This document shows positions 5,656-51,342 of a DNA stretch of 64,000 nt, piece after piece (position 1 is the stretch's first letter; each line of letters starts with the position of its first letter). Where the stretch lies: assembly GCA_000092065.1 (NCBI GenBank), contig CP000594.1. One strand, written 5' to 3'. The position numbers were made by a program, and so were the translations under genes. A model generated the notes under the pieces. It searched no databases and had not been told where the DNA came from. It saw nothing but the letters and a program-made list of their open reading frames with translations. Origin of the DNA: Ostreococcus lucimarinus. Taxonomy: Eukaryota.

Positions 5656-5889
5656 TTAATACACCAAAAAGTAAATGCAATTATGGTGTTTCATTATTCC
5701 ATACGAGTACCCCAGAACGACGAGTCGTGACCCATACGGTAAAAATATCACGTCCCGCCGGTCCGGTCCCCATAGTATATAGAATTTATACAATTCAGCC
5801 CGCGTCATTACGGGGGTACAGTAATCTATGTGTCCGACATTAAACTCGATTTTTGCTAGGGTTTAGCGTCCCCGGTGTCCCGCGCGCGC
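5656..5889 (+). promoter_or_regulatory. Conserved upstream module (copy 1). It ends with 'AAACTCGATTTTTGCTAGGGTTTAGCG' about 30 bp before the first ATG.
   Basis: It shares 'catacgagtac..gacgagtcgtgac..tacggtaaaaatatcacgtcccgccggtccggtcccc..atagtatat' and the 27-bp terminal box with 19750..20125 and 36130..36585. It contains a 'gtacagtaatc' half-palindrome. Confidence 0.55.
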
Positions 5890-6366
5890 ATGCGTTGGCG
5901 CCGTCGACACTCGTCGACGCCCCGGCCCGCGGTCGTTCGCGTCCACACGGTTCAAGTAGTGCCCTTGGACGACGAACGTGCGCTTGTGCACCCTTGCGCG
6001 GATGAAGTGCGTTTCCATCGTGCGTCGCCGCCGTTCGGTCCTTTAAGGGCGACCGTAGCGCAACCGGGCGATCTCCGTGCGGACGGCGCGATGCCGGCGT
6101 ACGCATCGCAAGGAGTGCACACCGGGGGCACTGCGCCATTCGCGACGTACCGTGCAGCACAACACGCGTTTGCAACGCCAGACGGCATGCATTGGCGCGG
6201 TGGACGCAGCGTTTCATTGAAAATTGCGCGCAGCACTAGTGGGCAAAGCGGCTCGTTGGCACCCCAACGGGTCTTAAACACAATACTTGTTTTGTTCGGA
6301 TACTCGCCCAGGGATCTAGACACACGTGAGGGTAGTCGAAGGGCTAGCGTCCGGTGCCAAAAGAAC

Positions 6367-12597: not shown

Positions 12598-12641
12598 AGC
12601 GCCGTAAAGCACGCGCGAGGCTGGAAGATACCCGCCAAGCG

Positions 12642-14399
12642 ATGTTATCGCGCATCGATATCTTGAAGTCACAACAGACCGACGAGGACCATTCCGATAA
12701 AATTACCGCGTTGTACGAAGTGGCGAATGAAATGGCACACATCGTGAATACGATCGTACCCCAAGCACCCCCAACCGGTCCCAACGCAGAAGGGTCTATC
12801 GAATTGCTGGATGAACAACTGGCATCAATTCTCAAGGACGTCGACGTCCGAGCGCGGGCGAACGCGTTAGATGCCCCAAATTCTGCGGCAGTACATATCG
12901 TGATGAAAGTCCACGCGTTCGATACAATCATATGTCGACTTGACGAACATTTGCTCGAATTCGCGGCGGCAGAACTTGTGAGTGAGCTTGCCGAGCTGGG
13001 TCGAAGACACGCTGAATTACGACATACGCGAAGTTGTGTCGCGATAGGTTTCGGTGACGCAGAGCTTCGAGCTACTTTCGATGCGCTACGATCGTCTATC
13101 GAGACACTTCGCCATGCCGTTGAGAACGACGACTTCGAAGCTGTATTCACCACTTTGAATGGTGGGAAGGAGATCATTGATTCTCACTTACGATGGTGTC
13201 GGGATCAATGTGAATTGTTCAAGAGCGCCGAGGACGAGCACCCCGATTTCCTCGAGGACGAGCCTCCACTGACGACCAAGTTTTTCAAGGCGACAGTCAA
13301 GGTGATACAATCCCATGAAAAGCAACTGTCTAAATTCAAATCGGAGTGTATTCGTAACTGGCCCCCGCTTTTCAAGAACTTTGGCCGCGTCAAGTACATA
13401 CAAGGCTTTGCTGAGCAACTTCAGAATCAACTCCATCTCGATCTCAATGAAAGCACGCCGGAGGAGGCCAAGGCTGTTTTCGATCAGGTGTTGGCCTTCA
13501 CAGATGGCTTCGCGGTTTGGTGCGGCGATTTAGTGGCACAGGTCGAAGGCTCAGATGTCTTCATCTTGTTTGAGCCAATCGCCCGCGCGATGATGGAAAG
13601 CTTGAAAGCCATCAGAACAGACGCTGAGTCGCAAAGTGCACTCGCGAGGCAAGCATTGAGTATGATAGATTATGCGGTGACGCAACGGGCGTTGGCCGCA
13701 ACGACGCGATCGGGCTTGCAGACAGCACTCGCAGATGGTACGTCTGCGCTTGAAGACCAGCTCGCCGCAGAAATTGCACACATGGACGCTGCGAAGATTT
13801 CTCGAGAGACTACTTTCGAGACCGACAAGATGCGCATCGAGGAAGCTTTGACTACATCAGAGCAAGAGTCGGACGGTAGGCGAGCGGTTTTAGAGGATGA
13901 CATTCGATCGCAACAGGACACTATCGCGCGGCTACAAAACTTGAAACGGGAAGAGGCCGCGGCATCGAGCTCTATAAACCCGTTGAAATGGGAGCGTTTC
14001 AGTCGAAGCACTGAGCTCGCCGAAGCTGTAAGTGCACTCCGTATGAGCAAACAAAACTTGAAGAATGAAGAGCTTGCAAATGAGAAGGCCCGCGGGGATG
14101 CCCGTAAGGCTGTTCATTCGTTGGAACGGGGCCTGAAAAAGGACCTGGTCGAATGTGACGTCCGAGCAAAAAAAATCCGAGACGATGTGGCAAAGGAGCT
14201 GAAGAAACAAACTCTGGATGCTCAGAGGAAGACACCCGAAGACGCTAAAGCCCATAAGGCTAGTCTGGCTTCCAGGCGCGCGGTGTTCCAGCAACAACGC
14301 GCCGCCGCCAAACTCATCGCGAGCGAAAGTAGAGAAGCTACGCGAATCCAAGCACAGCTTGCATACTACATGCGAAATTTAAAGGCGCGCGAATCGTGA
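12642..14399 (+). CDS. Hypothetical coiled-coil protein
   Basis: 630-aa ORF from 12507 overlaps the end of the preceding gene by 90 nt. The in-frame Met at 12642 ('MLSRIDILK') avoids the overlap. It is rich in heptad-like charged segments with no recognisable enzymatic motif. The start is uncertain, and it could instead be a frameshifted or spliced cytoplasmic tail of the upstream gene. Confidence 0.35.
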   Translation: MLSRIDILKSQQTDEDHSDKITALYEVANEMAHIVNTIVPQAPPTGPNAEGSIELLDEQLASILKDVDVRARANALDAPNSAAVHIVMKVHAFDTIICRLDEHLLEFAAAELVSELAELGRRHAELRHTRSCVAIGFGDAELRATFDALRSSIETLRHAVENDDFEAVFTTLNGGKEIIDSHLRWCRDQCELFKSAEDEHPDFLEDEPPLTTKFFKATVKVIQSHEKQLSKFKSECIRNWPPLFKNFGRVKYIQGFAEQLQNQLHLDLNESTPEEAKAVFDQVLAFTDGFAVWCGDLVAQVEGSDVFILFEPIARAMMESLKAIRTDAESQSALARQALSMIDYAVTQRALAATTRSGLQTALADGTSALEDQLAAEIAHMDAAKISRETTFETDKMRIEEALTTSEQESDGRRAVLEDDIRSQQDTIARLQNLKREEAAASSSINPLKWERFSRSTELAEAVSALRMSKQNLKNEELANEKARGDARKAVHSLERGLKKDLVECDVRAKKIRDDVAKELKKQTLDAQRKTPEDAKAHKASLASRRAVFQQQRAAAKLIASESREATRIQAQLAYYMRNLKARES

Positions 14400-14883
14400 T
14401 ATAGCGGTCGTCTACGAGGAATACACGCATAGTCTAAACATGACCATCCTGTTGGAGAAGGAGCTGAGTTTCCGCTTCGTTACGGATGAGATTGTCGCGA
14501 GGAGATGAGCCTTCAAATTCGGGGCGATGGCTCACAAATCAGGCAAGGGAAGACAGGTGCACGTGCAAACTCTCAGCGGAAAGAGTTCATCGTCTCGAAG
14601 ATCTCGGTGTTTGGTGAGACAAACTCGACACACAGCAGGAGCACTTCACTGCCTGAGTGTACAGAAGATGTAACTAGCCTGAAGCGTTCGACCGTTGAGA
14701 CCTCAAGTTTTGGTGCCCTCGCTTAAGATTTCTTCAGAATAGAATCTCTGAAAGCAAGGGATGCTCAAAGCAGCAAAAATGACTTCCTACTACGGGCCAC
14801 ACAGGACGCCGAGCCCGATTTCTCTGTGCGTTCCGACCCCCCTTAACAGCGGACCCTTGGGTCTTAAGAAATTTCAACCTTTA

Positions 14884-14912
14884 AGGTTATAGGTTATATA
14901 GGTTATAGGTTT
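14884..14912. repeat. Short (aggttat)n-like microsatellite
   Basis: 'aggttataggttatataggttataggttt' read directly. Confidence 0.5.
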
Positions 14913-15261
14913 ATTTATAAAGTTTACATGTGACGTTTTTTTTCAAAAATGGAAAAAAAAGTGACGGAGAGAAAGTTCCTCACAGGACCTCCAACCACTA
15001 AACCCATAACCGGTCACTCTTCCTCGCCCCGTTCTTTGATACACGTTCGCCCCACGACGGTTCGACCTGAAATTTTTTTCGGTTTGGCTTCGAACCCGAG
15101 CTTGGTCAGCGCGCGTCCGATGAGCATCTTGCTCACGGTGCAGCCGTTAAAAATATCAACTTTTTTGTTTCAGTTGGGGCACCCCAACATGATAAAACGC
15201 TCATCGACGTTGATGTACCGCATGTACGATTTCTTCAGAACCAATCGTTCGAGTGAAGTGG

Positions 15262-15759
15262 TCAAACCAAGCCACGCAACTCATCTACCGTAAATTGATA
15301 CTTGTCGAGACTGCGCTTCGAAGGCAGCGTGCCGCGCGCTCGAGCATTCTTGAGACACGTCTTACGCAGTATTCTTTTCGCGTGCTGCTTGTAATAATTG
15401 AGTTGTCTGTAGTTACCATCGCCGCCGTCCCGCTTCGGCGTATATTGAGCTCTGCTGTAGGCCAGACTCTCGTCCACGTTCTCGTGGCACGCGTGTTTCC
15501 GACTGCGTCCAGGAACTCGGGAGTTGAATACGCCGTCGCGCTTCTCTCTCATGTATGCACTTTTACGTTGACGGAGCTCTCCAGCTGGAATGTCCTTTTC
15601 GAGAACTCTCACGTCCGCGTCGCCAAACGTGAAGATTGGATGCCGTGCGTATTTATGCGAGGCAAGGCGCGCTCTGAGCGAACCTGTCGTCGATCCGATG
15701 TACGTTTTGTCACATTTCGCATTATCGCTAAACATTTCGTACACGCATCCCGACGGCAT
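15262..15759 (-). CDS. GIY-YIG family nuclease, 165 aa
   Basis: Same motifs as 4584..5081. Confidence 0.8.
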   Translation of the reverse strand: MPSGCVYEMFSDNAKCDKTYIGSTTGSLRARLASHKYARHPIFTFGDADVRVLEKDIPAGELRQRKSAYMREKRDGVFNSRVPGRSRKHACHENVDESLAYSRAQYTPKRDGGDGNYRQLNYYKQHAKRILRKTCLKNARARGTLPSKRSLDKYQFTVDELRGLV

Positions 15760-15926
15760 TTGTCCTGGTTACCTGTCTATCCCTAAGAAAATATTGTTGT
15801 CAAAAGTCCTCCTGCTGCGGTTTGCAGTCGCATTCGAGAGACCGTATCGCTGCGTGGGCTGCAAGGTCTGGGATGTAGATATCGAACCGCCCGATTTCAC
15901 ACCTGGACGTTCGTGATCCGTCGAGA

Positions 15927-16117
15927 CCTGACGAAATGACGAACTTGTTTTGTCGTCCCGAAATTCGTCAGCCCGTCGTTCGGTCACACTTTGTGTGTAC
16001 CAATGATGAAAATGACGAAATGTTAAAATATTTTAATGTTTATTTTTATTTTAGATCTACGACAAGCAACAGTGTAGACCTTTATGAAAACAGTTCGTCA
16101 TTCGTCATTTCGTCAGG
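15927..16117. promoter_or_regulatory. Intra-element inverted repeat ('cctgacgaaatgacgaac' and 'gttcgtcattcgtcatttcgtcagg') around an AT-rich spacer, between the primase-helicase and GIY-YIG genes
   Basis: The arms are reverse complements at 15927..15944 and 16093..16117, with one extra heptamer in the right arm. The spacer contains 'atgatgaaaatgacgaaatgttaaaatattttaatgtttatttttattttag'. It is conserved in all three copies (5268–5460 and 44254–44440). Confidence 0.6.
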
Positions 16118-16182
16118 ATCCAAACCATGGTCTTTTCGGTGTCTTGTTGAGTCTTCATATTGCAAATGTACGAATCACAAAA

Positions 16183-18393
16183 TTAGTATGAACACCAGAC
16201 GACCGCCGGCGCGAGCTCCGTCTCCCCCGTGTACCCATTGTTCTTCAGCCACTCGAAGCACCCGTCGCGGTCAATTTCCCAATAGACGCCATTCTCGTCC
16301 CTACCTTGCCTCAGGTGGTCCTCGCGCATTGGGATCCTGTGGCCCTTTTCCTTCTTGAAGAAGTCCTTGAGCTTATTGCCGACCCTGGTCGCGCTATCTT
16401 GACCGCGCGTAGCCGCTGGCAACCACGTCTGGTATTCGATGAAGATGTCACTGTTGCGGATTTTATTTCCAACCCACTTCTCAGGGAATTCAACAGTGAC
16501 GCAATGCTCAAACCATCGAGTGAACTTGGGCATGCAGCCACGCTTCATTTCCGAATACGCGTCGGTCGTAGGTCTGTCTTTCACGTAGTCAAAAGTCGAT
16601 AGGTCGAGCCCCATGAGGTGGTCGTAGATCGCCCTCAAGTTCCTCAGATCCTTGATGTACACGTCGCGGAATTCCTTCAAGAATCCAGTCTGGTCGTTCA
16701 AGTGCGTGAGCAGTGGCTCCATAACGACGAACCGACGATCACTCATTTCCAGAAAAACGGGGTAGTCGTCGTTCGAGAAAAATAGGAACCCAACCAGATT
16801 CATGATGACGTACAGCTGCACGTGCTTCGGGTTGATTGTGAAACTCGTGTCCGTGAGCATCGATTTCAGCAACTTTCTATACATTTTCATGATGCACTCA
16901 TCTGCTTCGTTCAACGCGAGACACTTTTTGCCTTCAATCATGTTCGCATGCGTCCCAAATATGTCCTTTTTCGGATCAGCCGTCTCATGAAACGTCTTGC
17001 CCATGAGCGCATGAAGCAGGTGCAGGAAAGTGCCCTTGCCGGTACCTTGGACTCCTCGAAACACGAGCGACGTGATCGGCTTCTCTTCGGGTCTCTGGAA
17101 GAGACACGCGAACCAATTCAAAGCGTACTCGAGCGCATTTTCTGAACCGCCACATAGCACCAGGAGGAGCTCGAGGAAAGGCTTTACGTCGCCCTCTTTG
17201 CCCAGTTCACTGGGGATGCCTTCGACCGGATAGCCTCGCCACAGATTGTACGTCTTGTTGCTGCAGTTTTTCGGGACGACATCGAGGGTATCGTACACCC
17301 GTTTATTGTCGTCGTCGAGCCACTTTTCGATGAACCCGTTCTTCTTGCCTTTCCTCAAGACACCGTTCTCATCGACAAAGGAGAGTTCTCGATAGCGCCT
17401 CACCAAAGCGGCCTCGCTGAACTTGGTAATGTCCCCGGTGGTTCCATAACAGCTATCGTCGCAGAAGAGGTCCTTGGTTAAGATCTTTGCGACGTGCTTC
17501 TCGAACTCACGGCGGACCTCGATGTAGCCCGCAGACGTGCCCTCTTTGATTTCGTTCTGCTCCTTTTCGGTGATACCGGTCACCAAACACCCAACCTCAA
17601 AGCGAAACTGTCTGGGCTTGCAGTTGCCATGGTTTTTCACGGTGAGCACGCCGAGACCGACCTCGGCGACGTAAAAGTGATTCCCACCGCCCCTTCCATT
17701 GCCTTCGTGGAAGCCCCCACAGCAAGGACATTGGCCCACAGTGGTGCCTCGCTGTGGGCGACATTGGTCGCATTCAAAATCATACGATGTCGCTCCACTG
17801 AGCCAATGTATGCCCGTGAACCCCATTTCCTCGAGCAAAGGTGTCACAGATGCTTGCGTAAAGCTGCACTCCGTGTCCGCGCGTTCGACCTTGTGACCGA
17901 CTTTGCCATCAAGGAAACTGTACAAATCGTTGGGCATCGGTGGTAAATTGTTGATGTCGCCTCGGAGTAGCTCGTAGCCCGGGGCATCGGCACCGACCAC
18001 GTAGTTACCCGTCGTACGGATATCGACGAACCCTTCGATGCCCACCGTGCCTTTCCAATCGCCGAATCGTTCTTCGTCCCATGCGAAGTACGTGTGGTAC
18101 CCGCCTGATCGCGTTTTGACGATGTACGCGCCTTCCCCGCCAACCTTGCGCGTCAACATTTCTTCCGTCAGTTCAAACTCGCACTTGCCACCGTAACAAT
18201 CCCAGTCGATGACGAGGACACGGTTCGGTCGCCCTGTCAGCACGCCGTACATTTCTCCTGGGATGACTTTCTGCGTATTCTGTTCATAGTTTGCTTCATC
18301 GAGGAACCCTCTGCCGCATGTTGGCTCCTTGTTCTGGTCGAGTGGGATCAGATGCATGCCGTTCGTAAATTCTCTGGCGTCCATATATATCAC
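16183..18393 (-). CDS. Primase-polymerase (AEP/Prim-Pol) fused to a D5-like SF3 helicase, 736 aa
   Basis: AEP motifs are present: 'VLVIDWDCY' (DxD), 'SGGYHTYF' (motif II His) and 'VDIRTTGNYVVGADAPGY' (motif III). A Cys4 Zn-ribbon 'CDQC...CPCCGGFHEG' follows. Walker A is 'GVQGTGKGTFLHLL', Walker B is 'KKCLALNEADE', and SF3 motif C is 'FFSND'. Confidence 0.85.
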   Translation of the reverse strand: MIYMDAREFTNGMHLIPLDQNKEPTCGRGFLDEANYEQNTQKVIPGEMYGVLTGRPNRVLVIDWDCYGGKCEFELTEEMLTRKVGGEGAYIVKTRSGGYHTYFAWDEERFGDWKGTVGIEGFVDIRTTGNYVVGADAPGYELLRGDINNLPPMPNDLYSFLDGKVGHKVERADTECSFTQASVTPLLEEMGFTGIHWLSGATSYDFECDQCRPQRGTTVGQCPCCGGFHEGNGRGGGNHFYVAEVGLGVLTVKNHGNCKPRQFRFEVGCLVTGITEKEQNEIKEGTSAGYIEVRREFEKHVAKILTKDLFCDDSCYGTTGDITKFSEAALVRRYRELSFVDENGVLRKGKKNGFIEKWLDDDNKRVYDTLDVVPKNCSNKTYNLWRGYPVEGIPSELGKEGDVKPFLELLLVLCGGSENALEYALNWFACLFQRPEEKPITSLVFRGVQGTGKGTFLHLLHALMGKTFHETADPKKDIFGTHANMIEGKKCLALNEADECIMKMYRKLLKSMLTDTSFTINPKHVQLYVIMNLVGFLFFSNDDYPVFLEMSDRRFVVMEPLLTHLNDQTGFLKEFRDVYIKDLRNLRAIYDHLMGLDLSTFDYVKDRPTTDAYSEMKRGCMPKFTRWFEHCVTVEFPEKWVGNKIRNSDIFIEYQTWLPAATRGQDSATRVGNKLKDFFKKEKGHRIPMREDHLRQGRDENGVYWEIDRDGCFEWLKNNGYTGETELAPAVVWCSY

Positions 18394-18695
18394 ATAAGAA
18401 AAGAATTCTTTAAGCCGTGTTTTTCCTGGTCACATCGGCGCGATGACTGATTTTCAAGTTTTTCAACAGCCTGGAAAAGCACGCCAGCGCGCCCCACTGG
18501 TCAACGTTTTGCCACTTTTTCGACGAGATCGGGGTACTGCAAAGCACACGGCGAAGACCCGAGAGATCAGCAGATCGACGAACTCCGCAGTGAGCTCAGT
18601 GACATCGTGTCAAGACTGGAGGCGGTGGAGAGCGCCTAATCATCGTTTTTCTATATCGCGCCATTCGTGGACAACAAAATATACGTCCACATATA

Positions 18696-19693
18696 TTAAC
18701 TCCCCGTGCTTGCCTCGTCCAAATTGGCATCGCCCATGCGCCGTCGAAGCGAAGACGTGTCATCTCCCGAACCACTGAGCGCCTTTAGCGCGCCCTCTAC
18801 GCCACGAAGCGCGCTGTAAAGAAGGTCTTGGGCGCCAACTTTGTTGTACCAATCTTGGAAGCTTTTGCACGCACAAAATTGCTTCTCAGGTCCCCATTCA
18901 GGCTGCCACTTTGGTACGTTACACTGACCATAACCATCATAGTTAACGTATCCATCAACGCTGAGGTTACTGCCATCGCAGCCAATGACACCCACAGGAT
19001 GAACAATGAAGCTACTTGAGCCACTTCGGTGGCCAACATACTGGGGTGGACATGACCCATAATTCCCACGATAATTCCACAGTGTGAGCCTCTGTTGTTC
19101 CATTTTCGCCTCGTAGCTGCGCAACGCATCGCTCAACTCCTCGAGGTTGCGTTCCAAAGATACACTAGTCCTTTTTCTTTTGTGTTGCTGGAGTTGTTCA
19201 GAGGCGTGTTCTTTTATGTCGGCAATTTTATCGGGCAAGCCTTTCAAATCTGCGATAACCGCATCCACATCGGCGCACATCGCGTTCAATGAATTGTCTT
19301 TCTCTTTTAATTTCGCACGAGTGTCCTCGATGTGCTGCGGGATAACCGACCGTCGCGTTTCGGAGATATTCTCGTCTTGTAGCTGCGCTTCCAGAACTCG
19401 GATATCTTTATCGATGCGCTCTACGGTGCGAAGATAACTCGCCCGTAAGAGGCGCTTGAACTCCTCGAGGCCGTCGGGCGTCGGTTTGTCATACTCGTCT
19501 CGTGATCTGGCGAATTTCTCGTAGCATGGGTCCTTGAAGAATGGCTTGTTCTTGTACGAGCGCTCGAGATCATCCTCCGCTGTTTTGACCGCCTCTGACT
19601 CCGCCGTGCCGTTCATCCAGTCCGGTTGCAGCGACGGGTCTAATGAGTTCGTTCTCCATGTCGGTGAGGCGTGCGCGACTGAATCGGTCATCG
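18696..19693 (-). CDS. Hypothetical protein with a coiled-coil N-terminal half and a Cys-containing C-terminal half
   Basis: ORF 18696..19769 starts inside the conserved upstream box via TTG. The first ATG, 'MTDSVAHASP', is at 19693, about 60 bp downstream of the 27-bp box, the same spacing as gene 36586. Confidence 0.4.
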
Positions 19694-19719
19694 CGTGCGT
19701 CGATGAGTGGCGCCGACAC

Positions 19720-19749
<30 letters not shown>

Positions 19750-19751
<2 letters not shown>

Positions 19752-19753
19752 GC

Positions 19754-19786
<33 letters not shown>

Positions 19787-20125
19787 TTGTCGATTTTTAA
19801 CACGTTTACAGTGGAACCTCTGCGGTTTTTGACGCCTAAACCCTAATTTCTAAACCCTAATGTGTAAATACGAGTACGACGTTTCATTAACCCATACGAG
19901 TACCCCCGAACGACGAGTCGTGACTCATACGGTAAAAATATCACGTCCCGCCGGTCCGGTCCCCATATACTATGGAATTTATGCTATTCAGCCCGCGCAA
20001 ACAGTCGGGTAGATTACTGTACAGTAATCTACCCGTATCTTACTGTACAGTAATCTGTGCGCGGAATCAGTAATCTGTACCCGGAATGACGCGGGATGTG
20101 GCGTAATCTATACCCGACATCCCGT
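19750..20125 (-). promoter_or_regulatory. Conserved upstream module (copy 2), with telo-box-like AAACCCTAA x3, a perfect 18-bp palindrome GATTACTGTACAGTAATC and the 27-bp terminal box
   Basis: Read directly. The palindrome is at 20012..20029 with a second 14-bp palindrome at 20040..20053. 'ctaaaccctaatttctaaaccctaa' is at 19846..19868. Confidence 0.55.
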
Positions 20126-20437
20126 GTTCTGTACACTGTGGGGCTTCAGGCCGCCGAGTATGATTAAGCCTATTTTGCATCACAATTGTCGGTCTACTCT
20201 TAACATTTGGCGGACTCGCGTTACATGCTATTCTGATCGAGTGGAATTTTCCATAGTTATTGTCCGTATGTTGAACGGCCCTCTCTTAAGATTGGGTGCG
20301 CATCTGAAGCGAGGCTTCCAGGATCTGAACAGTCGTGTACAGGTGGTTCGGTTAACGGCGTCTTCTGTACCCTCAGGTGGCGAACTTCATCTCCAAGATA
20401 TCAGGTTTTTGTGCCAAAACACACTCACTTCTTCGAC

Positions 20438-23400
20438 TCAACGGCTTGATTCCAAGGTCGAGCCGTAATCATACGCTCGCGAGCCTACGAACACCGCATC
20501 GCACTCGTTTATTGGCGCGCGTCGCGACTTACGACGTACAATCGCCACAAACGCAACAAAGGTAAACATCGCAAGGTACAGAGTTAATGTGAAGGGTCGA
20601 GGCGCCCCCAATCTGGCTCTCGACTGTTGCACGGCGTTACATTCGCACAGTTCCAATGCCTTGCTTCGTTGCTCGGCATTTTTCCAGTTACGCGTGAAGC
20701 TGACATTAAAGTTTGCGACTCCACGAAACATTTCGTCGACGTTCGCGTCAGCGCTCAATACCCACGAATTCAGATCTTGATTGAAACTTTTGGCGAAAGC
20801 AAACATCCGATGAAAGCTCTTGACGTTGGAGACGTTCCAATCGCTTAGGTTTTGATTGAAATTTCGATTGTACGCGAACATTTCTGACATGTCCGTAGCA
20901 GACGCCGTGTTCCACGCACTGATGATGGTCGCCGCCGTCGATCCAACGCCATTCAGACTATCGTAATGTGTTTGAAATAGACTTCTGAAATTCCTCACCT
21001 CACTTGTATCCACCATGTTTAGAGGCCCAAATCTACAACAGTAGCTGTACTTCGAGAAATTCGACCCCATGCAGTTACTCCGAGCTGACTCTTGGCTTCG
21101 GCAGGAGCGTATCACTTGGTATAAACTCGAACGATCGCCACGAAGTGGTGATAAACCTTGCGCCGTACCAGAATACGCAAAGAGATCTATAAACTGTTGA
21201 TGATCGCTTCGGTGAGTATTGACTTGTTTTTCCTTGATATTTTCGGCAAATGACGGCGAACGATAGCTTGGATTCAGAAAGTAGGTGGAATGGAACATCC
21301 CGTAAGCGGTCGTAACCGAGGAAACATCCCACGTCCACTTTCGCAAATCGCGCGAGAATGCGCGCGCGCCATTGAACATGTATTGCATGTTCTGAACTTT
21401 TTTCACGTTCCATGACGACAAATCCTGATCAAAACTTGTCGCATATTGAAACATTTTCACCATCGTCCCGACTTGCGCGACATTCCAAGATCCGATTGAC
21501 GCGTTGAAGTCTCTCCGATTTTGGAAAAGTTCATTCATGTTCGTTACCCTACTGACATCCCACGTCTCCATGGTCCCAAACTGTAAGTCTCGACACATAC
21601 CTCCGACGGGATCGACTTCCAAACATTTATCTATGATATCATCGATGTTGTCGTTATCGATGTGCTCCATAACTTTGGTTTCAGCGATTTTCGGTTTCCA
21701 ATTGCACGGGGGGCCATGTCTCATGTTCGACTTGCTGATTGAGACGAGTTTGAAATCGAACGAGCTCCGTCTGCCTCTTGCATAGTGACTGAACCATTTG
21801 GTAACGCGAACTTCGTCCTTCAATGCGTACTTCACCTTCCACGCGGCGGCGTTCAGGAACATGTCACCCACGATTGGCTGCAGAACGGTCGATTGCGACG
21901 TTGCGTGCTGGGCGAGACAAACGTACTCGCCTCGAACGGCAGCTTCGCCGCGGCCCCAATTTGTAATGTCGGCATCAAACATCCAAGCGTCGTCAAACAT
22001 TTTATAAAAGTCTGTGACTGATCTCACGTTCCAATCCCCCAAGTCTCCGTTAAATTTATAGGCGTTGGAAAACATCTGGTTCATGTCTTCAACCTGGGCG
22101 ACGTTCCAAAGTTTCAAAGAGCCCCGGAATCGACGCGCGCCGTAGAACATGCGGAACATACTCGTGACTGAAGCAACGTTCCAGTTTTCGATATTGCCAT
22201 TGAAGTCGCGTGCGCCCGAGAAGGCTTCAGACATATCGAACACACCTGAAGTATTCCAGGTTGACATCGCGCCATACTTGGAGTCGACGCAAGCGCCATC
22301 AGTGGGATGTGTCTCCAAACATTTGCCGACGGCGTACAAGAAATTACCTTGATGTACTTCGGCGAAGGTTGATGAATTCGTTGAGTTCTTGCTCGTTGTA
22401 GGCACGGTGCACTTAGCTGGCGAAGCACGATTTGGTTTCTTCGCCAACCCAACACAGTCGACATCACCATATATGGCGTGGCGACCATATTTCCCGTCTT
22501 TGTCGCGCCCCCACTTGTAGCCAATTTTCGTATTGTATTCCAGGCAAGTGCGCGGCTTGCAGGTCCACTTCGACACGGGACCAGAGAGAGACCACGTTCT
22601 TCTACGTTCGTGGCCTTCGCGCGTGCATGCCTCAAGCCAGGCCGTCGCAAGACCAAACATATTGGCACTCCCCAACCTGTCCAGACTCGCGGAATCCCAC
22701 TTGGAGATATCTTGCGCAAACTTCGACGCGCCGTAAAACATCCCCTCCATATTGTACACGTTGCGTACGTCCCAATTGCCAATGTCTTGATTGAAACTCG
22801 AAGCGCCTTGAAACATGCGCAACATAAATGTTACGGAACTCACATCCCAAGCAGATATATCGCCATCGAACTGGTCTCTGCCCTTAAATGCCTCGCGCAT
22901 GTCGGTGACTCGGCTTACGTCCCAGCCAGACATACATCCGTGTCTAAATCCAGAGCAGTCTCCGTACTTTGGGTCTTCACTCAAGCATTCTTCAATCGCA
23001 TCATAGAAGACAGCATTTTCAATGTTTACGTGCTTTCGTTTCCAAACAATCGGTGGTCCATCACTTTTCCCTCCGACGGCGAGAGGATCGCGATAAAACT
23101 CCATTTGAAACTCCGTGATGCCGTCGAACATCTTCGTCGAAACTTCCAACGAAGCCGTCGACCAAGAAGTGACATCAGGAAAGTCTGGGACCACTACTCT
23201 GGAAAACATCTCGCGCATGTTTTTCACTTTTCGCACATTCCAGTGCGATATCTCTGATGGGATCTTTCCAAAGCGAACGCCCTTGAACATCATTTCCATA
23301 CTTGTAGCCGAACTCGTGTCCCATGAAGCAAATCCTGAAGGCAAGCGGGTAGTGCGATATCGCGATGAAAACATGCTCCTAAAGTTCGTTATACCAATGG

Positions 23401-26400
23401 TGCGCATGTTGGATACATCGCAGGTCGTCGACACGGGTGAATTCAAACCAGAAAACATGGAATCAGCATCGACGTTTGATCCGAAACTCCATGAGATGTT
23501 GACATCCGTGCACTCAGAACCCTTCATCATTGCCTTGATATCATTGGCAGAGTCTAGTTTCCACGCGCTCGCTTGACGAAGAATGGGTGGTTTTGAGAAA
23601 GCAAACGCGGATTGCATCTTCTGAACTCGTTTAGGATCCCATTTGCCAAGACCGTCGATGGCGTCGTGACCAATCCGAGCAAATGCAAGCTCCATGCTCT
23701 TCACATTCCTCACGTCCCAAGAACCAATATCGCCGATGCGTCCTTGATTTGTCATTTTGAAGAATATTCCGTCCATGTTGGTGACCGAGGAGACATCCCA
23801 ATGTTTGAACATATTGTGCCAATCACGCCCCAGACCACTGAAGGTGAACCGCATGCTCCGCACGCTACTTACATTCCACGCACCCAAGTTACCAAAAGTC
23901 GCTCCCGGTAGAATGACCACAGTGCGTGGAACATCTAATCTGAAACGCGTTTCGGAATGCGAAGATGCCTTCCATTCTCCCGTATCATTGAAATACCGTT
24001 CTCCATATCTGAAAATGTGGTAATTATAGCGCTGCATGAACATTGCATCCATGTTCACGACTGAACTCGTGTTCCACTGTGACAAGTCGCCCACGTCGCC
24101 TTCAAAATCCTCAAACATCGCACCCATGTCCGTCACGGAGCTCACGTCCCATCTCGACAGGTCACGTGAAAAGTTGGGCGCGTCCTTGTATGCAGCACCA
24201 AACTCTCCAGGGCTTGCTTGAAAGAATTTCCATCGCAAACATACGTAGCCGAACGTTCGGTAATGTCCCGGAAACGCGGCTTGGTCAAACTGAAAGTGGT
24301 TAACAGTACCAATTTTGAACGCGTACGACATGTCGGTTACTCGCGAGACATCCCATTCTGACATCGGCCCGTATCTCAATTCGCATGTCGTTAAATTCTT
24401 TCTGCATGCGATGATCGCGGTATAGAAATCATCATCTGTACGAGTCAAGTTGAGTGGTTTGGATACCAGAGCGCTCAAAAGTCGGCGTCCAAGTGGAAGC
24501 CGAACAGGATCGTCGATACTTTTACCCAAACGTGCGCTGACGCTCATCGCCGGCGACTTGGCGGAGGTGAGCTCCTCTTCGAGCCTTCGCAGCTTGGCCC
24601 GCAAACCTACAAGCCCTCGGTTCCTCGGATTGCGAGCCTCGATCCGCGCAATTTTTGTGCGGAGCTTTGTCATTTCCGGCGTCGGGCTCGGTGGCGGCGG
24701 GCTCGGACTTGTCGACGGCGTGTCGCCGAAGAGCTCCTCTTCGAGCCTTCGCAGCTTGGCCCGCAAACCTACAAGCCCTCGGTTCCTCGGATTGCGAGCC
24801 TCGATCCGCGCAATTTTTGTGCGAAGCTTTGTCATTTCCGGCGTCGGGCTCGGTGGCGGCGGGCTCGGACTTGTCGACGGCGTGTCGCCGAAGAGCTCCT
24901 CTTCGAGCCTTCGCAGCTTGGCCCGCAAACCTACAAGCCCTCGGTTCCTCGGATTGCGAGCCTCGATCCGCGCAATTTTTGTGCGGAGGTTTGTCATTTC
25001 CGGCGTCGGGCTCGGTGGCGGCGGGCTCGGACTTGGTGTAGTCGTCAGATAATCGATCGATGAGCTCGGCGATTGACTCGGACTCGGCGAGCTCTTCTCT
25101 TCGTCAGCGTCCTCCTCTTCGTCAGCATGTTCGACTTCGTCTTTGTCTGCCTCTTCGTCCTCCTCTTCGTCTGCATTGTAAGGCGATGGACTCGGACTCG
25201 GCGAGCTCTTCTCTTCGTCAGCGTCCTCCTCTTCGTCAGCATGTTCGACTTCGTCTTTGTCTGCCTCTTCGTCCTCCTCTTCGTCTGCATTGTAAGGCGA
25301 TGGACTCGGACTCGGCGAGCTCTTCTCTTCGTCAGCGTCCTCCTCTTCGTCAGCATCTTCGACTTCGTCTTTGTCTGCCTCTTCGTCCTCCTCTTCATCT
25401 GCATTGTAAGGCGATGGACTCGGACTCGGCGAGCTCTTCTCTTCGTCAGCGTCCTCCTCTTCGTCAGCATGTTCGACTTCGTCTTTGTCTGCCTCTTCGT
25501 CCTCCTCTTCGTCAGCATTGTAAGGCGATGGACTCGGACTCGGCGAGCTCTTCTCTTCGTCAGCGTCCTCCTCTTCGTCAGCATGTTCGACTTCGTCTTT
25601 GTCTACCTCTTCGTCCTCCTCTTCGTCAGCATTGTAAGGCGATGGACTCGGACTCGGCGCACTTGCTTGTGCGTCGATACCTGTATATTCTGGTTCATCG
25701 GATGGCGTGTAGTTCTGAAATGGTTCATACGAATCTGTGGTTGTATTCGTTTTACTCGACGCAGCACGATGACCGATGGTATCCGCGTCGACCTCAAAAC
25801 TAAAATTGCCATTAAGACGGAAACTGGACTCCTTAGAGTCAAGAATTGCTTGGTCGTCGTCACTCACGGATACTTTATCGAGAATTTTGAGCGAATGTAT
25901 CGTTGGTAGCGGAGCACCTAGTACACTGCGGCGTACGTCATGAAGACGATCGCGAGTGGACAGCAAACGACGGTGACTTGGGCTCGTGGCAGTACACATC
26001 TTGAACAGTTTCTCGTCGTGCAATGACGAATATAGTACCTTTTTGCTTCGGGCGAGCACATCAAAGCTTGAAGTAAGTAGCGCGTCTAAATGACTCGGTA
26101 TACCAACGCCCCTCACGGACGTTAACAATTCAAACGAAGAAGCTCGTGGCGGTAAACTTTTCAGCTTTTCACGCCTCGCCCACGGGAGAGGCTTGGCAAG
26201 GTCTACCATTTCTTCCTCACCGTCTTCATTTTCGCATTTCCCATCGTCGTCGTAGACGCACATTTGACAGGTTGTCTCGTTGATGCTTGCTACATACTTG
26301 AGCGGTAGTTCGGGCAGTACAATATTCTGTAAAAAGCCAGTCACGTTTCCCACGATACTCAAACCCTGCTCTGAATCGGGATATTTCCCCCAGAAATTGA

Positions 26401-29400
26401 GCACCGGTTTGACGTGAAGATCCAGAAGGGTCCCGAATCGACTCTTCACATCACGCGCACCGTGGAAATTACTCTTTGATCGGTTCACCATGGCGTACAA
26501 AGGCCGAAGCGCATCTGTTGGCTCGACAAGTCGAGTTTCACATTCACCCCATGCCGCGCGAATCAAATCTTCGTACACATACGTCACATCCGATGTGTTG
26601 AACCATTGGCGTTTGCAATTATGATTCAGCGTGTGCAGCATCCATTTTCGCGCTTCGATATCGCAGAACGGCCGAGTAACTTGAATGACATCCTCCATGA
26701 GAATTTTGTGTATCTCTGGGTCCTCTTTGCATTTTAATGTCATAGATACTGAGCGTATCATCTTGTAGAATGTGCTCGGGTAATACATCGCGTGTGGGCG
26801 AAATACGGCGTACACACGCTTGATGAGGGTTTGATTCGTGATTGACGCCACGTCGATGTGGTTAATGAGCGTCTCCCAAGCCTCGATGTTGTGTGGATTC
26901 GATTCTAACGCTGAGAGTAAAATCGCACCGACGCGATCGACAACTTGAGCGCCAGCATCCATGTACACGTTCTGGAACAAAAGCATCGCCAAGCGCGTCT
27001 CAACGTACGAATCCAACCCTTTGCTTACCGCTCTTGAAAGTGCACGGACATGGTCGACGGAAACGATGGCATTCTTCTTCACACCTGGCGCGTTACGATG
27101 TTCCAAAATACTCAACGTCGTTCTCGCAAACGTCGAGTTGGTGGGCCAATGCAGTGGTACCGTACGCCACAAGCGCGAGAGTTCATCAAATTTAAAGCTA
27201 ATACCTCCAGGAATGGCTCCCCTCTTTTTGGAAACTTTCGTCGGGATCCCGAGACATGTTTGCATACCGATGGACAGATAAGCGATCATCGCGGCGTCAC
27301 CGCCGTCTTGAGCGATCCGTGGAAGAGAATTCGGGTGCCAGTTTGACGCCTTGCATAGAGTTTCCGCGCGTTCGGTGACGTTTGCGTGATTCAACCTCAA
27401 CCAAGTTGTATTGAGATTCCTTCTGCTGGCAATGTGCATGCATTCACTCGTTGGAAAGTGCGCACCAGCGTGCATGGCTACGACTGGCCACGGAATTCGA
27501 CCAAAATTCATCGCTCCGTTGACGTTTGCATTCAACGTGCTGTGCATGTAGTGAATTGCCTGGAGCGGACTCGGATTCAATTCTCGACTTCCTGGCATGG
27601 CCAATGTCCCATTTATGAGCTTCTTCCTGATTTCACAGACATCGCCGACTTCTTCATCCCGAGACTGATCCAAAAGCGTTGAAGTAGAGTCTGCGATGAA
27701 ATTCATATGACGATAATTGAAAGCTGTCGCAAGGATAGCATCGGATATGTTCGCGGCATCACCTCTAAAATAATTTGCCAAATATCGCACGTGATCCAAC
27801 GCTTTCATGTGCGTCGGCATCGTTAGACTATAAAGTGCTTTTCGAAACGAAACGCCTTGGCTTAACTTGGTGTGTTCTATCCATTCCCAAATAGGGTCGC
27901 TCTGCGGTATTCTCGTCAGCCGCTTGCTGAGACGCTCGTTGGATTCGAGAACTTGTTTTGAAAGCGCCTCACTCCAAGCACCCTTTGCATTTTGAACAGC
28001 AATCAAGAGCTCGTCTTGTGGAAACGCTGTGAGGAAACCACGACGCATAAATGTGTGCTCAGCAGAAATGTCCGAACGTGATAGAGAGGACAAATCAAAT
28101 TGAAGATGATGAATGAGCCGACACGTACCCGCGGCCGCAAACCCAATGAAGACGAATCCTGGGCACTTGGGCGTGTTCATACACAGAGAAGAGCACACAT
28201 CGACGGACACAGACACCGGCGACACTGGATAACTCGTCATCGTCATTTGCGGGAGGAGAACAAAATGAGTTGCAGCCGCTCGTCGCGCTGTGGTGTTCCA
28301 TGCGTGCGGTAAATCCATGATCGGTGTTGACCCTGAGACGCTGATTCTCGGCCGCGAGCCTTTAAACAGATTTGAGGAGCACCCTGTCTGTTGTTCCGAG
28401 GGTTTTGTCACGGGGTCGCAGACGACATCGCAATGCGCGTCTTCGTCATCCCTTCGAACACACTCTACGTCACGAATACGGATGCCGTTGATGCACGCGC
28501 CCCACGTAGTTTTCACGCGCCAGGACGCGCCTACACATCTGGGAATCTGAACATCGCAAGCGCCAGTTTCACCGCGTGTCCAACCATTCAAGCAGGTACA
28601 CTTGTAGTCGTAAGTCCAAGGTTTCGTGTCGTGATAATGTTTCTCACATGCGCCATTCGCGCACGACGTTGCGCCTCTTCTGGTTAAAGAGCAAGCTTGA
28701 GGAGGACACTCTTCACGCGTGTTGCAACTCCGAATACTTTCTGGCCTCGCGAGGGGACATAGAGCGCTTCTGGCGAGAGTCCCATTGGCATACGTACACG
28801 ATAACGATCTGACTTGAAAGGGCCGAGCGTCGTAGTCCAAAGTAGCACACTGTGCGCTGCACTCGCCATATGGCATACTGATCCAGTCAGCGTCGTCTCG
28901 TGGAGGCGGCGCGTAACATTCACGTTCGCGAAAATCTGTCATGATTACCCCGTCAGGTCGAGGGACAAAGCAACATCCATGATCTTCGCATACCAAAGCA
29001 CGAACTTCAGGGCTCGTGGAGCCCCGTCGATCATCGCTCTCGTAGCCAGCACACACCATTCTTCCGGAGTCTTGTCTACACTGCGCATCGCAATGGAAAT
29101 GATTACAGAATTCCTTTTCAGTAGGCTTTTCTGCGTGCGTACAGTGATCATCGGGCAGCGTTATATTTGTGCCTCTTTCGTCTTCGTGCGAGCACCAGAC
29201 CCTACGAATGCGCACTCCACCACCACACGATTTGGAACAAGAGGTAAAAGGGGAGGATTTCCAACGCACGAATTTGAGCTTTGTGAAGAAGCTTGACTGG
29301 ACGGAACTCACCACGAATTCGCGTAGGCCGTCGATCGTGACTGGGTGTTCGTACTCGACATTCGTGTACAACGTTGATCCAGATTCGCTCTCAATCGGCT

Positions 29401-35908: not shown

Positions 35909-36129
35909 GGGCGTTCGATTCTCGACCTCGTTGCCACGGATGGTGTTGGCGGAAACCTCGAGTGATAGCGCGGGTGAGTCTCGAACGAACGGGTGAGTTA
36001 CGGGTGAGTCTCGAACGACTGTTTCTTTTCTCGGCCACGCGCGCGTTTTCTTTTGTCCGCCTCTCTCTCTCGCGCGCGTCGTCGAGTGATGCTGGTGCCG
36101 CTCGTGACGGATTTAAGGGCTTGAACACC

Positions 36130-47116: not shown

Positions 47117-47181
47117 CCACACTTATTATATGACGACAGTGCCTACCTGTCGGTGGTCACGGAAAAGTTGCGTCTCAGACT

Positions 47182-51304: not shown

Positions 51305-51342
<38 letters not shown>

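Follow-up and report, generated by a model that had tools for sequence, protein, structure and literature searches.

A candidate portable promoter and leader cassette ends in palindromic joints between gene modules of a low-GC island in Ostreococcus lucimarinus

The DNA analysed here, referred to as the window, is a stretch of 64,000 nucleotides from Ostreococcus lucimarinus CCE9901. Bases 1-51182 form a low-GC island: GC content is about 51% up to roughly 51 kb and 54-71% beyond. Host DNA begins at 51183, next to joint J4, which is the right edge of the island, and at least 13 kb of normal DNA follow. Proteins encoded in the window match those of this strain exactly, on a chromosome that measures 708,927 bp. 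As ABO99473 is found on the same chromosome, the window must lie somewhere in the right ~40% of it; from this and from the normal DNA to the right, we dropped a subtelomeric location. A telomere-like array in another locus (L039), four units long, is interstitial and does not mark a chromosome end.

Several kinds of repeats form a mosaic in the island, and its cargo includes ferritin, flavodoxin, ferredoxin and LHC genes next to adhesin-like surface giants. Three large modules follow one another (Table 1). S1 holds the DUF285 gene, a 630-aa gene, a GIY-YIG/PrimPol-helicase repeat and the 331-aa gene. S3 holds the Tectonin gene, the same kind of repeat, the ferritin gene and the 596-aa gene. 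The ends of S2 read CAGTAATCTGTGCGCGGAAT and, as reverse complement, CTGTAATCAAAGCGCGGGAT.

Table 1. Position of cassette parts, joints, modules and genes in the window.
Feature	Position	Strand	Remarks
Dead arm pointing left ('inverted' block of copy A)	5656..5816	-	
Joint J1 and minimal arm	5817..5841	+	TA-CAGTAATCTATGTGTCCGACATT, directly adjoining box A
Module S1, 14.2 kb	5819..20019	.	promoters at both ends facing inward
Box copy A	5842..5868	+	exact; leader 5869-5889, ATG 5890 of 2235-aa DUF285 gene
331-aa coiled-coil orphan gene	18696..19691	-	downstream of cassette B
Leader of cassette B	19692..19753	-	between box B and ATG 19691
Box copy B	19754..19780	-	exact; holds telomere-type motif CTAGGGTTTAG
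Spacer of cassette B	19781..19880	-	TAGGGTTTAG at 19838-19845 and 19852-19859; CAAAAAYCG motifs
Arm of cassette B	19881..20019	-	shared block of the original prediction
Joint J2	20006..20056	.	30-bp perfect palindrome CGGGTAGATTACTG-TA-CAGTAATCTACCCG at 20006-20035
Module S2, 16.2 kb	20048..36236	.	sole gene: 5156-aa TSP1/PAN/DUF285
5156-aa ORF	20438-35908	-	diverges from cassette C
Promoter arm of 5156-aa gene, box-less	36130..36236	-	TATA-like CTATATAAAG
Joint J3	36229..36254	.	GATTACAG-TA-CAGTAATATAACCCCC
Arm of cassette C	36239..36409	+	
Module S3, 14.9 kb	36239..51161	.	both arms similar inverted repeats, ~50 nt
Box copy C	36494..36520	+	exact; leader 36521-36585, ATG 36586 of 2136-aa Tectonin/discoidin gene
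Partial arm	48791..48870	+	like promoter arm of 5156-aa gene; ends just short of terminus
596-aa gene	49178-50968	-	box-less promoter arm
Promoter arm of 596-aa gene, box-less	50969..51161	-	one telo-box, 51096-51103
Joint J4, right island edge	51150..51182	.	GGTAGATTACTG-TACTGTA-CAGTAACCCTCTAG

Three unrelated genes in the window are preceded by the same 27-bp box, AAACTCGATTTTTGCTAGGGTTTAGCG, as the original prediction had it. No further copy was found in the window at up to three mismatches, and none occurred in 100 shuffled sequences (three exact copies versus 0 expected). From the box end to the first in-frame ATG of a long ORF we measured 21, 62 and 65 nt for copies A, B and C. The predicted distances of about 30 bp for copy A and 60 bp for the other two thus held approximately, and the minus-strand start codon had to be moved from 19693 to 19691.

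The box is part of a cassette of about 350-450 bp that comprises, from outside to inside, a 13-nt terminus (TA followed by CAGTAATCTACCC), an arm of about 170 bp with TATA-like motifs and the motifs GCGCGGGATGA, CATAAAT and TATATGG, a spacer, the box, and a leader of 20-100 nt that ends at the start codon. In arm B, the terminus CAGTAATCTACCC is followed by GCGCGGGCTGAAT, CATAAAT, CCATAGTATATGG, GGACCGGACCGGCGGGACGTG and GACGAGTCGTGAC. The shared upstream block is real in all three loci, although nearer to 160-170 bp than to the ~250 bp assumed before. Its pairwise matches are 5656-5817 against 36409-36249 (89%, inverted), 5688-5804 against 19881-19997 (92%) and 19881-20029 against 36377-36229 (86%). 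It does occur in either orientation, being inverted relative to the box in copy A, where the dead arm is truncated at 5656 by a primase-helicase gene remnant. The two orientations are two arms that stand head to head around a palindromic joint. Both partial copies anticipated further right, near 48641..48862 and 51107..51180, were also recovered, at 48791-48870 (81% identical to 36151-36230) and at 51108-51168 (75% identical to 19966-20026). Cassette C lies in a bidirectional region as foreseen: the 5156-aa ORF diverges from it, with CTATATAAAG 240 nt from its ATG.

The spacer contains two telomere-type TAGGGTTTAG motifs, and a third such motif lies inside the box. For the corresponding plant telo-box, AAACCCTA, we counted nine occurrences in the window, where 0.53 would be expected; all lie within complete or partial cassettes, and the motif is kept in the consensus of the cassette family. 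The original prediction had mentioned neither the telo-box within the box nor the outer, palindrome-forming terminus as a recurrent breakpoint.

Conservation is concentrated in short blocks. In the window, the box is 100% identical across the three copies, and its flanks are 83-93% identical; at 89% identity, an invariant box would arise by chance with a probability of about 0.04 in one pair and of about 0.002 in two. In copies chosen independently of the box, per-site conservation reached 80-100% for the box, CAAAAACG and TAGGGTTTAG, and 50-70% for the flanks. Both box flanks exist in several unrelated versions. Box conservation could in part reflect gene conversion, and most box copies were recovered by searching for the box itself. 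There are arms without a box, as well as one box copy without an arm (L016/L075) in DNA of normal GC content, from which it follows that the cassette parts are separable. No inverted-repeat pair and no target-site duplication bound the cassette; its single conserved terminus stands opposite an end that grades into leader and ATG.

The leader is conserved ahead of unrelated genes. In cassette B it encodes a 15-codon uORF (19735..19688), the TGA of which overlaps the main ATG. RNAalifold predicted 0 pairs across 26 leaders, and hence we rejected a conserved RNA hairpin. Rfam gave 0 matches at the gathering score in the whole window and, at E<1 in cassettes B and C, only weak miRNA-like matches on the palindrome; tRNAs were not found either. 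A structured RNA or ncRNA gene was accordingly dismissed as well.

Two termini placed head to head produce a perfect palindrome of 28-30 bp (...GATTACTG-TA-CAGTAATC...), laid out as 11-bp arms around TGTACA. Cores of this kind are present at J1, J3 and J4 and at 33 places in the collected loci, J2 being the perfect 30-bp form. At J2, the palindrome is followed by GTATC and a second core, TTACTG-TA-CAGTAATCT, at 20040-20056. J3 joins the promoter arm of the 5156-aa gene on its left to cassette C on its right. We collected 40 distinct arms, all of which start with TA followed by CAGTAAT (or TA followed by CTGTAAT). Most are paired head to head, and about eight solo arms adjoin unrelated DNA exactly at TA. 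Half-palindromes also lie on the 3' side of genes and where normal-GC DNA begins. Mini-units that consist of two termini only measure 24 nt at 20022-20045 and 29 nt in two other loci (L048 and L074). Some joints are scarred at the centre: J4 has five additional nucleotides (TACTGTA), and L094 and L103 show central deletions.

Outside the window, the cassette is widely dispersed. The 22-nt box core was found on 76 metagenome contigs, none of them viral. A profile search yielded 122 box modules, 35 of which lack the exact 22-mer and have a box that differs by only 1-3 bases, so that marine metagenomes hold at least 120 copies. All contigs recovered with box-linked genes are METAG-labelled or stem from metagenome assemblies. 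The sequences downstream of the box fall into about 36 DNA clusters and 29 protein families, among them an LHC protein, an aspartyl protease, a methyltransferase-like protein and many orphans, and the module adjoins genes of at least three chromosomes. The predicted positional bias towards gene starts is present in these contexts. In 28 of 35 contexts, an ORF of at least 100 aa began no more than 260 nt downstream of the box on its strand, compared with 4 of 23 for the opposite direction (Fisher p=3e-6; p=6e-8 against random positions at 35%, p=2.5e-4 against a 50% null), with a median of about 84 nt between box and ORF. In three contigs (L077, L083, L084) the same gene without box carries a different promoter, which joins at the leader. 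Haplotype pairs that differ by the cassette alone were not found; instead, cassette and gene vary as a block.

In wild contigs at least 97% identical to the window we located about 30 breakpoints in unique sequence, 24 of them at most 8 nt from a core and three at a box edge. Left of 5825, at J1, L042 and L057 diverge from the window. At J2, contigs break at 20027 (L067/L078-L082) and 20040 (L090), and at J4 the breakpoints of L078 and L090-L097 fall at 51162-51168. Left partners other than the one seen here occur at J3 in L098, in L102 and L104, in L099 and in L029. Although its identity is 99.8-99.99% over 7 kb, the Tectonin block has at least four different left partners, and the arm of the 596-aa gene has at least five partners. 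Two junctions, 18434-20027 joined to 51162-51559 and 46090-51168 joined to 20040-20569, match the window at 100% to the left and to the right of the joint, and each appears in several independent assemblies. In L113 and L114, S2 has the opposite orientation. A few breakpoints coincide with other repeats (43282, 47284, 49041 and, in L113 and L114, 43416). These junction variants come from short-read metagenome assemblies of mixed populations, in which allelic and paralogous arrangements are not told apart.

The island as a whole is also variable. It is absent from eight of the ten longest wild contigs of the neighbouring gene, where host genes stand in its place. In these empty-site contigs (L108-L112 and L115-L117) the match to the window begins only at 51183, and the empty site reads ACATA/TAGAAC. 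A target-site duplication was not seen at this island-level site. The outer island edges are truncated arms rather than clean termini; the wild left junction was obtained from contig L118. At least five different occupants use the same chromosomal site. The data place an accessory island of at least 51 kb on a standard chromosome and show that the allele without it is common in the sea. The site is reminiscent of the genomic-island hot spots of bacteria, here in a eukaryote that is among the smallest.

Known mobile agents were sought in the same material. Neither a transposase nor a recombinase appeared among the best 25 Pfam families per batch for the window ORFs and for 137 plus 52 ORFs of related contigs, nor was a clear nuclease found in the ~190 ORFs of window and related contigs. 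The GIY-YIG assignment is a weak one, with a Pfam E-value of 0.007, below the cut-off, and one UniRef name; PDB and NCBIfam gave no match for it. An integrated virus was rejected because box and arm motif are absent from IMG/VR, where the only match to a core 20-mer was a chance one in an AT-rich phage capsid gene. Polinton-like viruses did not fit the 15-kb modules, the otherwise unassigned ORFs of which are of coiled-coil or Cys-rich membrane type with no capsid-like signal. Nor does the cassette belong to the primase-helicase repeat: the repeat edges lie elsewhere, and another island with the repeat (L106, 17 kb) has no box and no core.

The cassette in the window is best explained as one copy of a modular 5' family of low-GC accessory islands in O. 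lucimarinus-type genomes. We propose, with a probability of roughly 0.55, that it is the portable promoter and leader arm of gene modules that are exchanged at palindromic joints. Of the two options in the original prediction, this favours the co-opted promoter or leader cassette, for which position and orientation in about 36 contexts speak. It is from its position that we assign a putative promoter and leader function to the cassette, with the arm as the probable core promoter. The cassette would supply promoter and 5' leader to whatever gene comes next. The telomere-type motifs and the box are candidate protein-binding sites through which the genes of the island may be switched on and off together. 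Two TRF-like Myb proteins of O. lucimarinus (XP_001421395 and XP_001416857; PMC3400083) are candidate binders; true TRB proteins are a streptophyte innovation (PMC10167121). In plants and in Neurospora, PRC2 is recruited by interstitial telomere motifs, and PRC2 subunits are on record for O. lucimarinus (PMC8788455).

The outer terminus would mark the end of a gene module, and abutting modules would create the perfect palindrome. Double-strand breaks at the palindrome centre in different copies, followed by rejoining, could then swap, invert, delete or insert whole promoter-plus-gene blocks and regenerate the palindrome, sometimes with small central scars. Candidate agents for this presumed break-and-rejoin chemistry are the putative GIY-YIG protein of the island (165/269 aa), a transposase of Tc1/mariner type whose gene lies elsewhere, or the repair machinery of the host acting on a palindrome prone to breakage. 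A palindrome of 28-30 bp is short for spontaneous cruciform breakage.

Several other readings account for part of these observations. The arms might be terminal inverted repeats of non-autonomous, cargo-carrying transposons of the Tc1/mariner/pogo type: a transposase encoded elsewhere would cut between TA and CAGT and reinsert modules at TA, often beside an existing end, and the promoter would lie in the subterminal region. The termini do begin with CAGT and are always TA-flanked, S2 and S3 are bounded by similar inverted ends, and mini-units of two termini exist. J4 carries TA-CTG-TA, which resembles the footprint that Tc1/mariner excision canonically leaves. However, a size of 14-16 kb is well above what is usual in this superfamily, and repeated insertion exactly at the TA that flanks another end would be an unusual target preference. 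Furthermore, a DDE transposase was not among the best 25 Pfam families per batch for the window and for related contigs totalling about 0.6 Mb, and the available empty site, which is that of the island, shows no target-site duplication and faces truncated arms. A Tc1/Mariner element reported in O. tauri outlier regions counts in favour of this origin (bioRxiv 10.1101/2025.04.21.649811); overall we hold it to be unlikely. The MITE-like repeat that keeps landing in 5' regions, i.e., the second option of the original prediction, which we extended to a solo LTR, would be compatible with size, copy number and TA-flanked terminus, and inverted head-to-head copies do look like long inverted repeats. 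Its anatomy is wrong for both: only one end is defined and the other merges into leaders of several types and the ATG, so that neither inverted repeats at both ends of a short non-coding unit nor a defined 3' end of an LTR exist. The target-site duplications that the prediction had asked about do not surround the cassette copies, no haplotype pair differs by the cassette alone, and neither a primer-binding site nor, among the best 25 families per Pfam batch, a reverse transcriptase or integrase was found in the loci. We therefore rejected both identities as hardly credible.

A dedicated site-specific recombinase could instead use the palindrome as its target. Modules would then leave the chromosome as circles and enter it in the manner of integron cassettes or integrative elements; S2 plus S3 could make up a circle of 31 kb that is copied by a primase-helicase of its own. 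The layout of the palindrome resembles dif, lox and FRT sites, both half-sites are retained at nearly every junction, and a symmetric spacer permits inversions and deletions, both of which are seen (the inverted arm of copy A; S2 in L113 and L114). The S1-host junction, with 20028-51161 deleted, and the S3-S2 junction look reciprocal, and each has a single clean palindrome. S2-S3 and S3-S2 junctions share one sample, ERZ27276839, but this is co-occurrence in a metagenome and not necessarily in one genome. Solo half-sites, double cores 5 nt apart and central indels are not products of conservative recombination, and the ORFs searched gave no tyrosine or serine recombinase among the best 25 Pfam families per batch, which makes this a very improbable mechanism in our view. 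A further alternative would be a passive repeat: an ordinary intergenic promoter region copied by segmental duplication and rearranged by microhomology, with box and palindrome functionless. The mosaic nature of the island and the few breakpoints at other repeats fit with this. The core, moreover, is the only sequence that unrelated arms share, and any homology-guided event between them would hence fall there. Such copying does not readily explain a module in front of about 36 unrelated genes and beside genes of at least three chromosomes, its strongly biased orientation to gene starts, an invariant box between flanks in several unrelated versions, or half-palindromes at 3' gene flanks and normal-GC edges, where a promoter copy is unexpected. 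We thus regard a passive origin as rather improbable.

The exchange of promoter-bearing modules at palindromic joints, our preferred reading, may touch on a broader question. Mamiellales (Ostreococcus, Micromonas, Bathycoccus) resist giant viruses via hypervariable low-GC regions. Rearrangements in these regions have been described, their mechanism has been called unknown, and chromothripsis-like events or end joining have been proposed (PMC5498103, PMC13390643). O. lucimarinus has been described as having hardly any transposable elements (bioRxiv 10.1101/2025.04.21.649811). We may tentatively speculate, while doubting it more than we trust it, that Ostreococcus has a eukaryotic gene-cassette system: promoter-bearing modules of 1-16 kb that end in TA followed by CAGTAATCTACCC would be cut and re-joined by a sequence-specific nuclease or recombinase, possibly with circles replicated by the primase-helicase, and the telomere-motif box would act as one chromatin switch. 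If so, the low-GC accessory islands would owe their assembly and reshuffling to this machinery, and so, by extension, would the hypervariable 'outlier' chromosome regions that have been connected with virus resistance. The 13-nt terminus, the 28-30-bp joint and the 27-bp box are concrete sequences with which island plasticity and co-regulation can be tested, and the island cargo genes are relevant to the ecological niche.

Each known system shares some features with the cassette. Like plant telo-box promoters, it has the same interstitial telomere motif (AAACCCTA(A), present and enriched) in 1-3 copies about 60-250 nt upstream of the start codon. In contrast to these promoters, the motif here lies within an invariant 27-bp box and a dispersed 400-bp cassette, and the downstream genes encode adhesin-like giants, LHC, a protease and orphans; a link to translation-machinery genes was not found among them. 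With Tc1/mariner/pogo inverted repeats it shares CAGT-starting, TA-flanked termini in inverted pairs and the TA-CTG-TA scar. Unlike in these elements, neither a transposase, among the best 25 Pfam families per batch, nor a demonstrable TA duplication was found; units of 14-16 kb hold several host-type genes with their own promoters, and the end of one unit mostly runs directly into that of its neighbour.

Integron cassettes with attC, as well as dif, lox and FRT sites, offer a further analogy, with a short, imperfect to perfect palindromic site at every cassette boundary, cassettes in many orders with many neighbours, and one chromosomal site with many alternative occupants. The setting here is a eukaryotic nucleus, however, each module brings a promoter of its own and does not depend on a shared one, an integrase was not among the best 25 Pfam families per batch, and scars and solo half-sites point to non-conservative joining. 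In recurrent palindrome-mediated rearrangements with centre-break repair, such as the human PATRR translocation t(11;22), breakpoints likewise fall at exact palindrome centres with small central deletions or insertions, and halves of different loci are exchanged. The perfect palindrome described here has only 28-30 bp, reaching hundreds of bp only where similar arms face each other, and is GC-balanced and tied to promoters. Finally, the downstream genes in our case are mutually unrelated and have no single expression site, in contrast to contingency gene families such as Pneumocystis MSG with its UCS/CRJE, trypanosome genes with 70-bp repeats and Plasmodium var genes with their ups sequences; a possible parallel is that in these families as well, a short conserved element just upstream of many surface-protein genes lies in a hypervariable compartment and doubles as a recombination junction.

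In the window, our scan found exactly three exact copies of the 27-bp box AAACTCGATTTTTGCTAGGGTTTAGCG (copies A, B and C) and no fourth copy with up to three mismatches, and 100 shuffled sequences contained no match. All three boxes face a long ORF at distances of 21–65 nt from the first in-frame ATG, which confirms the original prediction of such a box ahead of three start codons. Upstream, the copies have in common a block with 86–92% identity; it had been expected to measure about 250 bp and is only about 160–170 bp long. This block was also said to occur in either orientation, and indeed in copy A it is inverted relative to the box, as two arms, the segments of about 170 bp that precede the conserved module, meet head to head at J1, one of four joints in the window. 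Partial copies of the cassette were likewise found as anticipated. The box is identical in 3/3 copies vs flanks that are 83–93% identical, and at 89% identity the chance of an identical box would be about 0.04 per pair. One leader variant contains a uORF with a stop that overlaps the main start codon (ATGA); the ATG of this uORF is absent from the other leader variants.

Features of the cassettes, joints and low-GC genes along the window
Feature	Position	Strand	Remarks
Box, copy A	5842-5868	+	21 nt to first in-frame ATG (5890)
Box, copy B	19754-19780	-	62 nt to first in-frame ATG (19691)
Box, copy C	36494-36520	+	65 nt to first in-frame ATG (36586)
uORF in leader	19688-19735	-	15 codons
Partial cassette copies	48791-48870; 51108-51168		
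Joint J1	5817-5841		
Joint J2	20006-20056		30-bp perfect palindrome, then second core
Joint J3	36229-36254		
Joint J4	51150-51182		
Giant gene, 13 DUF285 ('PARCEL') repeats	5890-12597	+	intron-less; 75-nt periodicity
Giant gene, TSP1 + PAN + DUF285	20438-35908	-	intron-less; 5156 aa
Tandem repeats in the 5156-aa gene	24551-25036; 24954-25773		near-perfect; 162 nt x3 at 94% identity, 114 nt x6 up to 99%
Giant gene, Tectonin + discoidin	36586-42996	+	intron-less; 2136 aa
Primase-helicase repeat, three copies	15148-18558; 43389-47116; 1667-3095 and 4335-5657		
66-nt AT-rich unit	4356-4488; 43410-43476		
Ferritin gene	47685-48542		
Direct repeats around ferritin gene	47181-47321; 48868-49008		141 bp, 90% identical

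Alignments showed that the conserved module is much larger than the box and runs from TAGGGTTTAGAAATTAGGGTTTAGACGTCAAAAATCG...GTCAAAAACGGGCCTTTTCTG through the box to CTCCGGTTTTCCGACGGAGGAATTGCGTGCGGGCAGATCGCGTCGTCGGCGCCACT...ATG; the preceding arm always starts with CAGTAATCTACCC. The 22-nt core of the box matched 76 metagenome contigs, most of them with 50–55% GC, and no viral contig. These contigs adjoin genes from three or more O. lucimarinus chromosomes. DNA at +130 to +730 downstream of the box falls into about 36 clusters, and the downstream ORFs into 29 protein families, with Pfam matches for a chlorophyll a/b-binding protein, an aspartyl protease and a methyltransferase-like protein and none for the rest. 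A same-strand ORF of at least 100 aa begins within 260 nt downstream in 28/35 usable contexts (median about 84 nt). The proportion is 4/23 on looking the other way (Fisher p=3e-6) and 35% for positions drawn at random (p=6e-8); against the 50% that an intergenic element would give, p=2.5e-4. By profile search, the sequences collected yielded 122 module copies, 35 of which had not been chosen via the exact 22-mer; their boxes deviate by only 1–3 bases. Across these 35 copies, per-site conservation reaches 80–100% in the box, the CAAAAACG motif and the TAGGGTTTAG motifs vs 50–70% in the stretches between. The box is flanked on both sides by several unrelated versions, with two spacer types and at least five leader types, and may directly abut the terminus, as in copy A. 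The motif AAACCCTA occurs nine times in the window (0.53 expected), always within cassettes; we take TTTAGGG to be the Ostreococcus telomere repeat.

Because of its position, orientation and motif-wise conservation, the cassette is best read as a portable promoter with a 5′ leader, to which we assign a probability of roughly 0.75 from sequence comparison. Position and orientation thus speak for the promoter or leader half of the original either/or prediction, while its other half, a MITE-like repeat, failed on anatomy, as did an LTR. We also rejected the cassette as part of the primase-helicase repeat, and searches returned no Rfam family, tRNA, predicted conserved RNA fold or viral match; no capsid-like domain is among the matches listed for about 190 ORFs. 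In L016/L075 (L075:6133), the box has its leader and lacks arm and terminus; it lies in normal-GC DNA (64–67% GC) before a 93-aa ORF and adjoins a gene of a 366-kb chromosome. This suggests a minimal portable unit of box, about 35 nt upstream and leader. The alga encodes TRF-like Myb proteins (PMC3400083), and the motifs suggest that these might bind the telomere-type elements, which, by analogy with plants and Neurospora, may act as a PRC2-type switch (PMC8788455).

The low-GC stretch 1–51182 is an accessory island on a standard chromosome. GC content is about 51% up to about base 51,200 and 54–71% in the remainder of the window. Among contigs with the neighbouring mitochondrial-carrier gene, eight of the ten longest (50–337 kb) match the window solely from 51183 on, and their left parts consist of host DNA at 62–67% GC with the genes for poly(A) polymerase and RRS1. 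Several window ORFs are annotated as O. lucimarinus CCE9901 proteins on a chromosome of 708,927 bp, and exact-sequence lookup recovered 7/10 window ORFs in the protein collection. A subtelomeric position, guessed from accession order, was dropped since the same chromosome also carries ABO99473. The empty site reads ...TTATACATA followed by TAGAACACGC..., the reference right edge ...GATTACTG-TACTGTA-CAGTAACCCTCTAG followed by TAGAACACGC, and at a wild left edge (L118) host DNA meets a truncated arm. Comparison of empty site and filled edges revealed neither a target-site duplication at island level nor clean termini at the outer edges; hence, the first integration looks illegitimate, with later exchange apparently centred on the cores, the palindromic terminus sequences. 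The same site exists in at least five states (L108–L118 and others): empty, with module S3 (reference, L089) or S1 beside the host, with an inverted S2-type giant gene (L113, L114) and in a further arrangement (L010).

The island encodes three giant extracellular-type proteins, for which a cell-surface or virus-contact role is plausible, as well as ferritin and several orphan coiled-coil or Cys-rich proteins. The ferritin gene lies between direct repeats, the downstream one truncating a partial promoter arm five bases short of its terminus. The primase-helicase repeat (3.4–3.7 kb; copies 94–98% identical, one rearranged) encodes a 736-aa PrimPol + DUF5906 (P4-type) primase-helicase and a putative GIY-YIG protein. 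The primase-helicase 90% cluster has 601 member sequences, its relatives, at 84, 81, 57 and about 33% identity, are without exception unnamed proteins from marine metagenomes, and the repeat looks like a proliferating selfish element. Its left end is marked by an AT-rich unit of 66 nt (GCTACTTTAAACTTAGTATATTTTTTTTGAAAAAAGAGTAG...), which one copy carries as a tandem duplicate; in two wild contigs (L113/L114, around position 5150), this unit is a breakpoint in which the palindromic core plays no part. Cargo of related islands (L007/L048 LHC and other low-GC contigs) includes a light-harvesting protein, flavodoxin, ferredoxin, thioredoxin, NeuB with cytidylyltransferase, methyltransferases, rhomboid and Peptidase_S74, a flexible-genome set of iron, light and surface-glycan flavour.

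Forty distinct arms begin TA/CAGTAAT, with the consensus CAGTAATCTACCC, about seven variable bases, GCGCGGGATGA and CATAAAT. Most are joined head to head to a second arm, giving ...GATTACTG-TA-CAGTAATC..., and about eight adjoin unrelated DNA exactly at TA. J1–J4 split the island into the modules S1 (14.2 kb), S2 (16.2 kb) and S3 (14.9 kb). The contigs compared encode exact matches to the 331-aa, ferritin, 596-aa and Tectonin proteins of the window. Homology breakpoints in unique sequence number about 30: 24 of them are no more than 8 nt from a core, three are at the 3′ edge of box B, and the remainder fall at other repeats. One junction links 18434–20027 to 51162–51559 (L067/L079, L078, L080–L082), another 46090–51168 to 20040–20569 (L090, L091, L096), both with flanks at 100% identity to the window and only about 13 nt of core in common. 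At least five different partners occur next to the arm of the 596-aa gene, and at least four next to the Tectonin unit despite its 99.8–99.99% identity over 7 kb. Three upstream versions of the DUF285 gene converge 15 nt before the box, and the 331-aa gene also occurs with its own leader behind a different, box-less promoter. J4 shows a central change of +5 nt and reads TACTGTA; L094 and L103 carry central deletions at joints. These junctions come from short-read metagenomes of mixed populations, but identical ones recur in assemblies of separate samples, made by different assemblers whose k-mers exceed the palindrome in length, which argues against chimeras. Sequence variants place module exchange at the terminus and palindrome, a reading that we consider likely with the assembly caveats included.

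For this exchange we favour, on sequence grounds, that the palindrome centre would break and the ends then rejoin, which would explain why perfect palindromes are regenerated, why central scars and solo half-sites occur and why a recombinase is lacking. The modules might instead be exchanged by a TA-specific transposase or a dedicated site-specific recombinase, but the matches listed for about 190 ORFs include no domain of either kind. In the favoured break-and-rejoin scheme, the putative GIY-YIG protein of the island is no more than a candidate for the acting nuclease.

In the papers compared (PMC5498103 and PMC13390643 among them), outlier chromosomes are hypervariable, with tandem 'accordion' repeats, chromothripsis-like change and translocations showing 4-nt microhomology, and O. 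lucimarinus is called TE-poor (bioRxiv 10.1101/2025.04.21.649811); these papers mention neither a shared promoter cassette nor a palindromic joint. As we found neither transposase, recombinase, target-site duplication nor two-ended inverted repeats around the cassette, we do not assign it to any single known family. It is akin to telo-box promoters, and its modules are akin to TA/CAGT-ended or palindrome-joined mobile modules.
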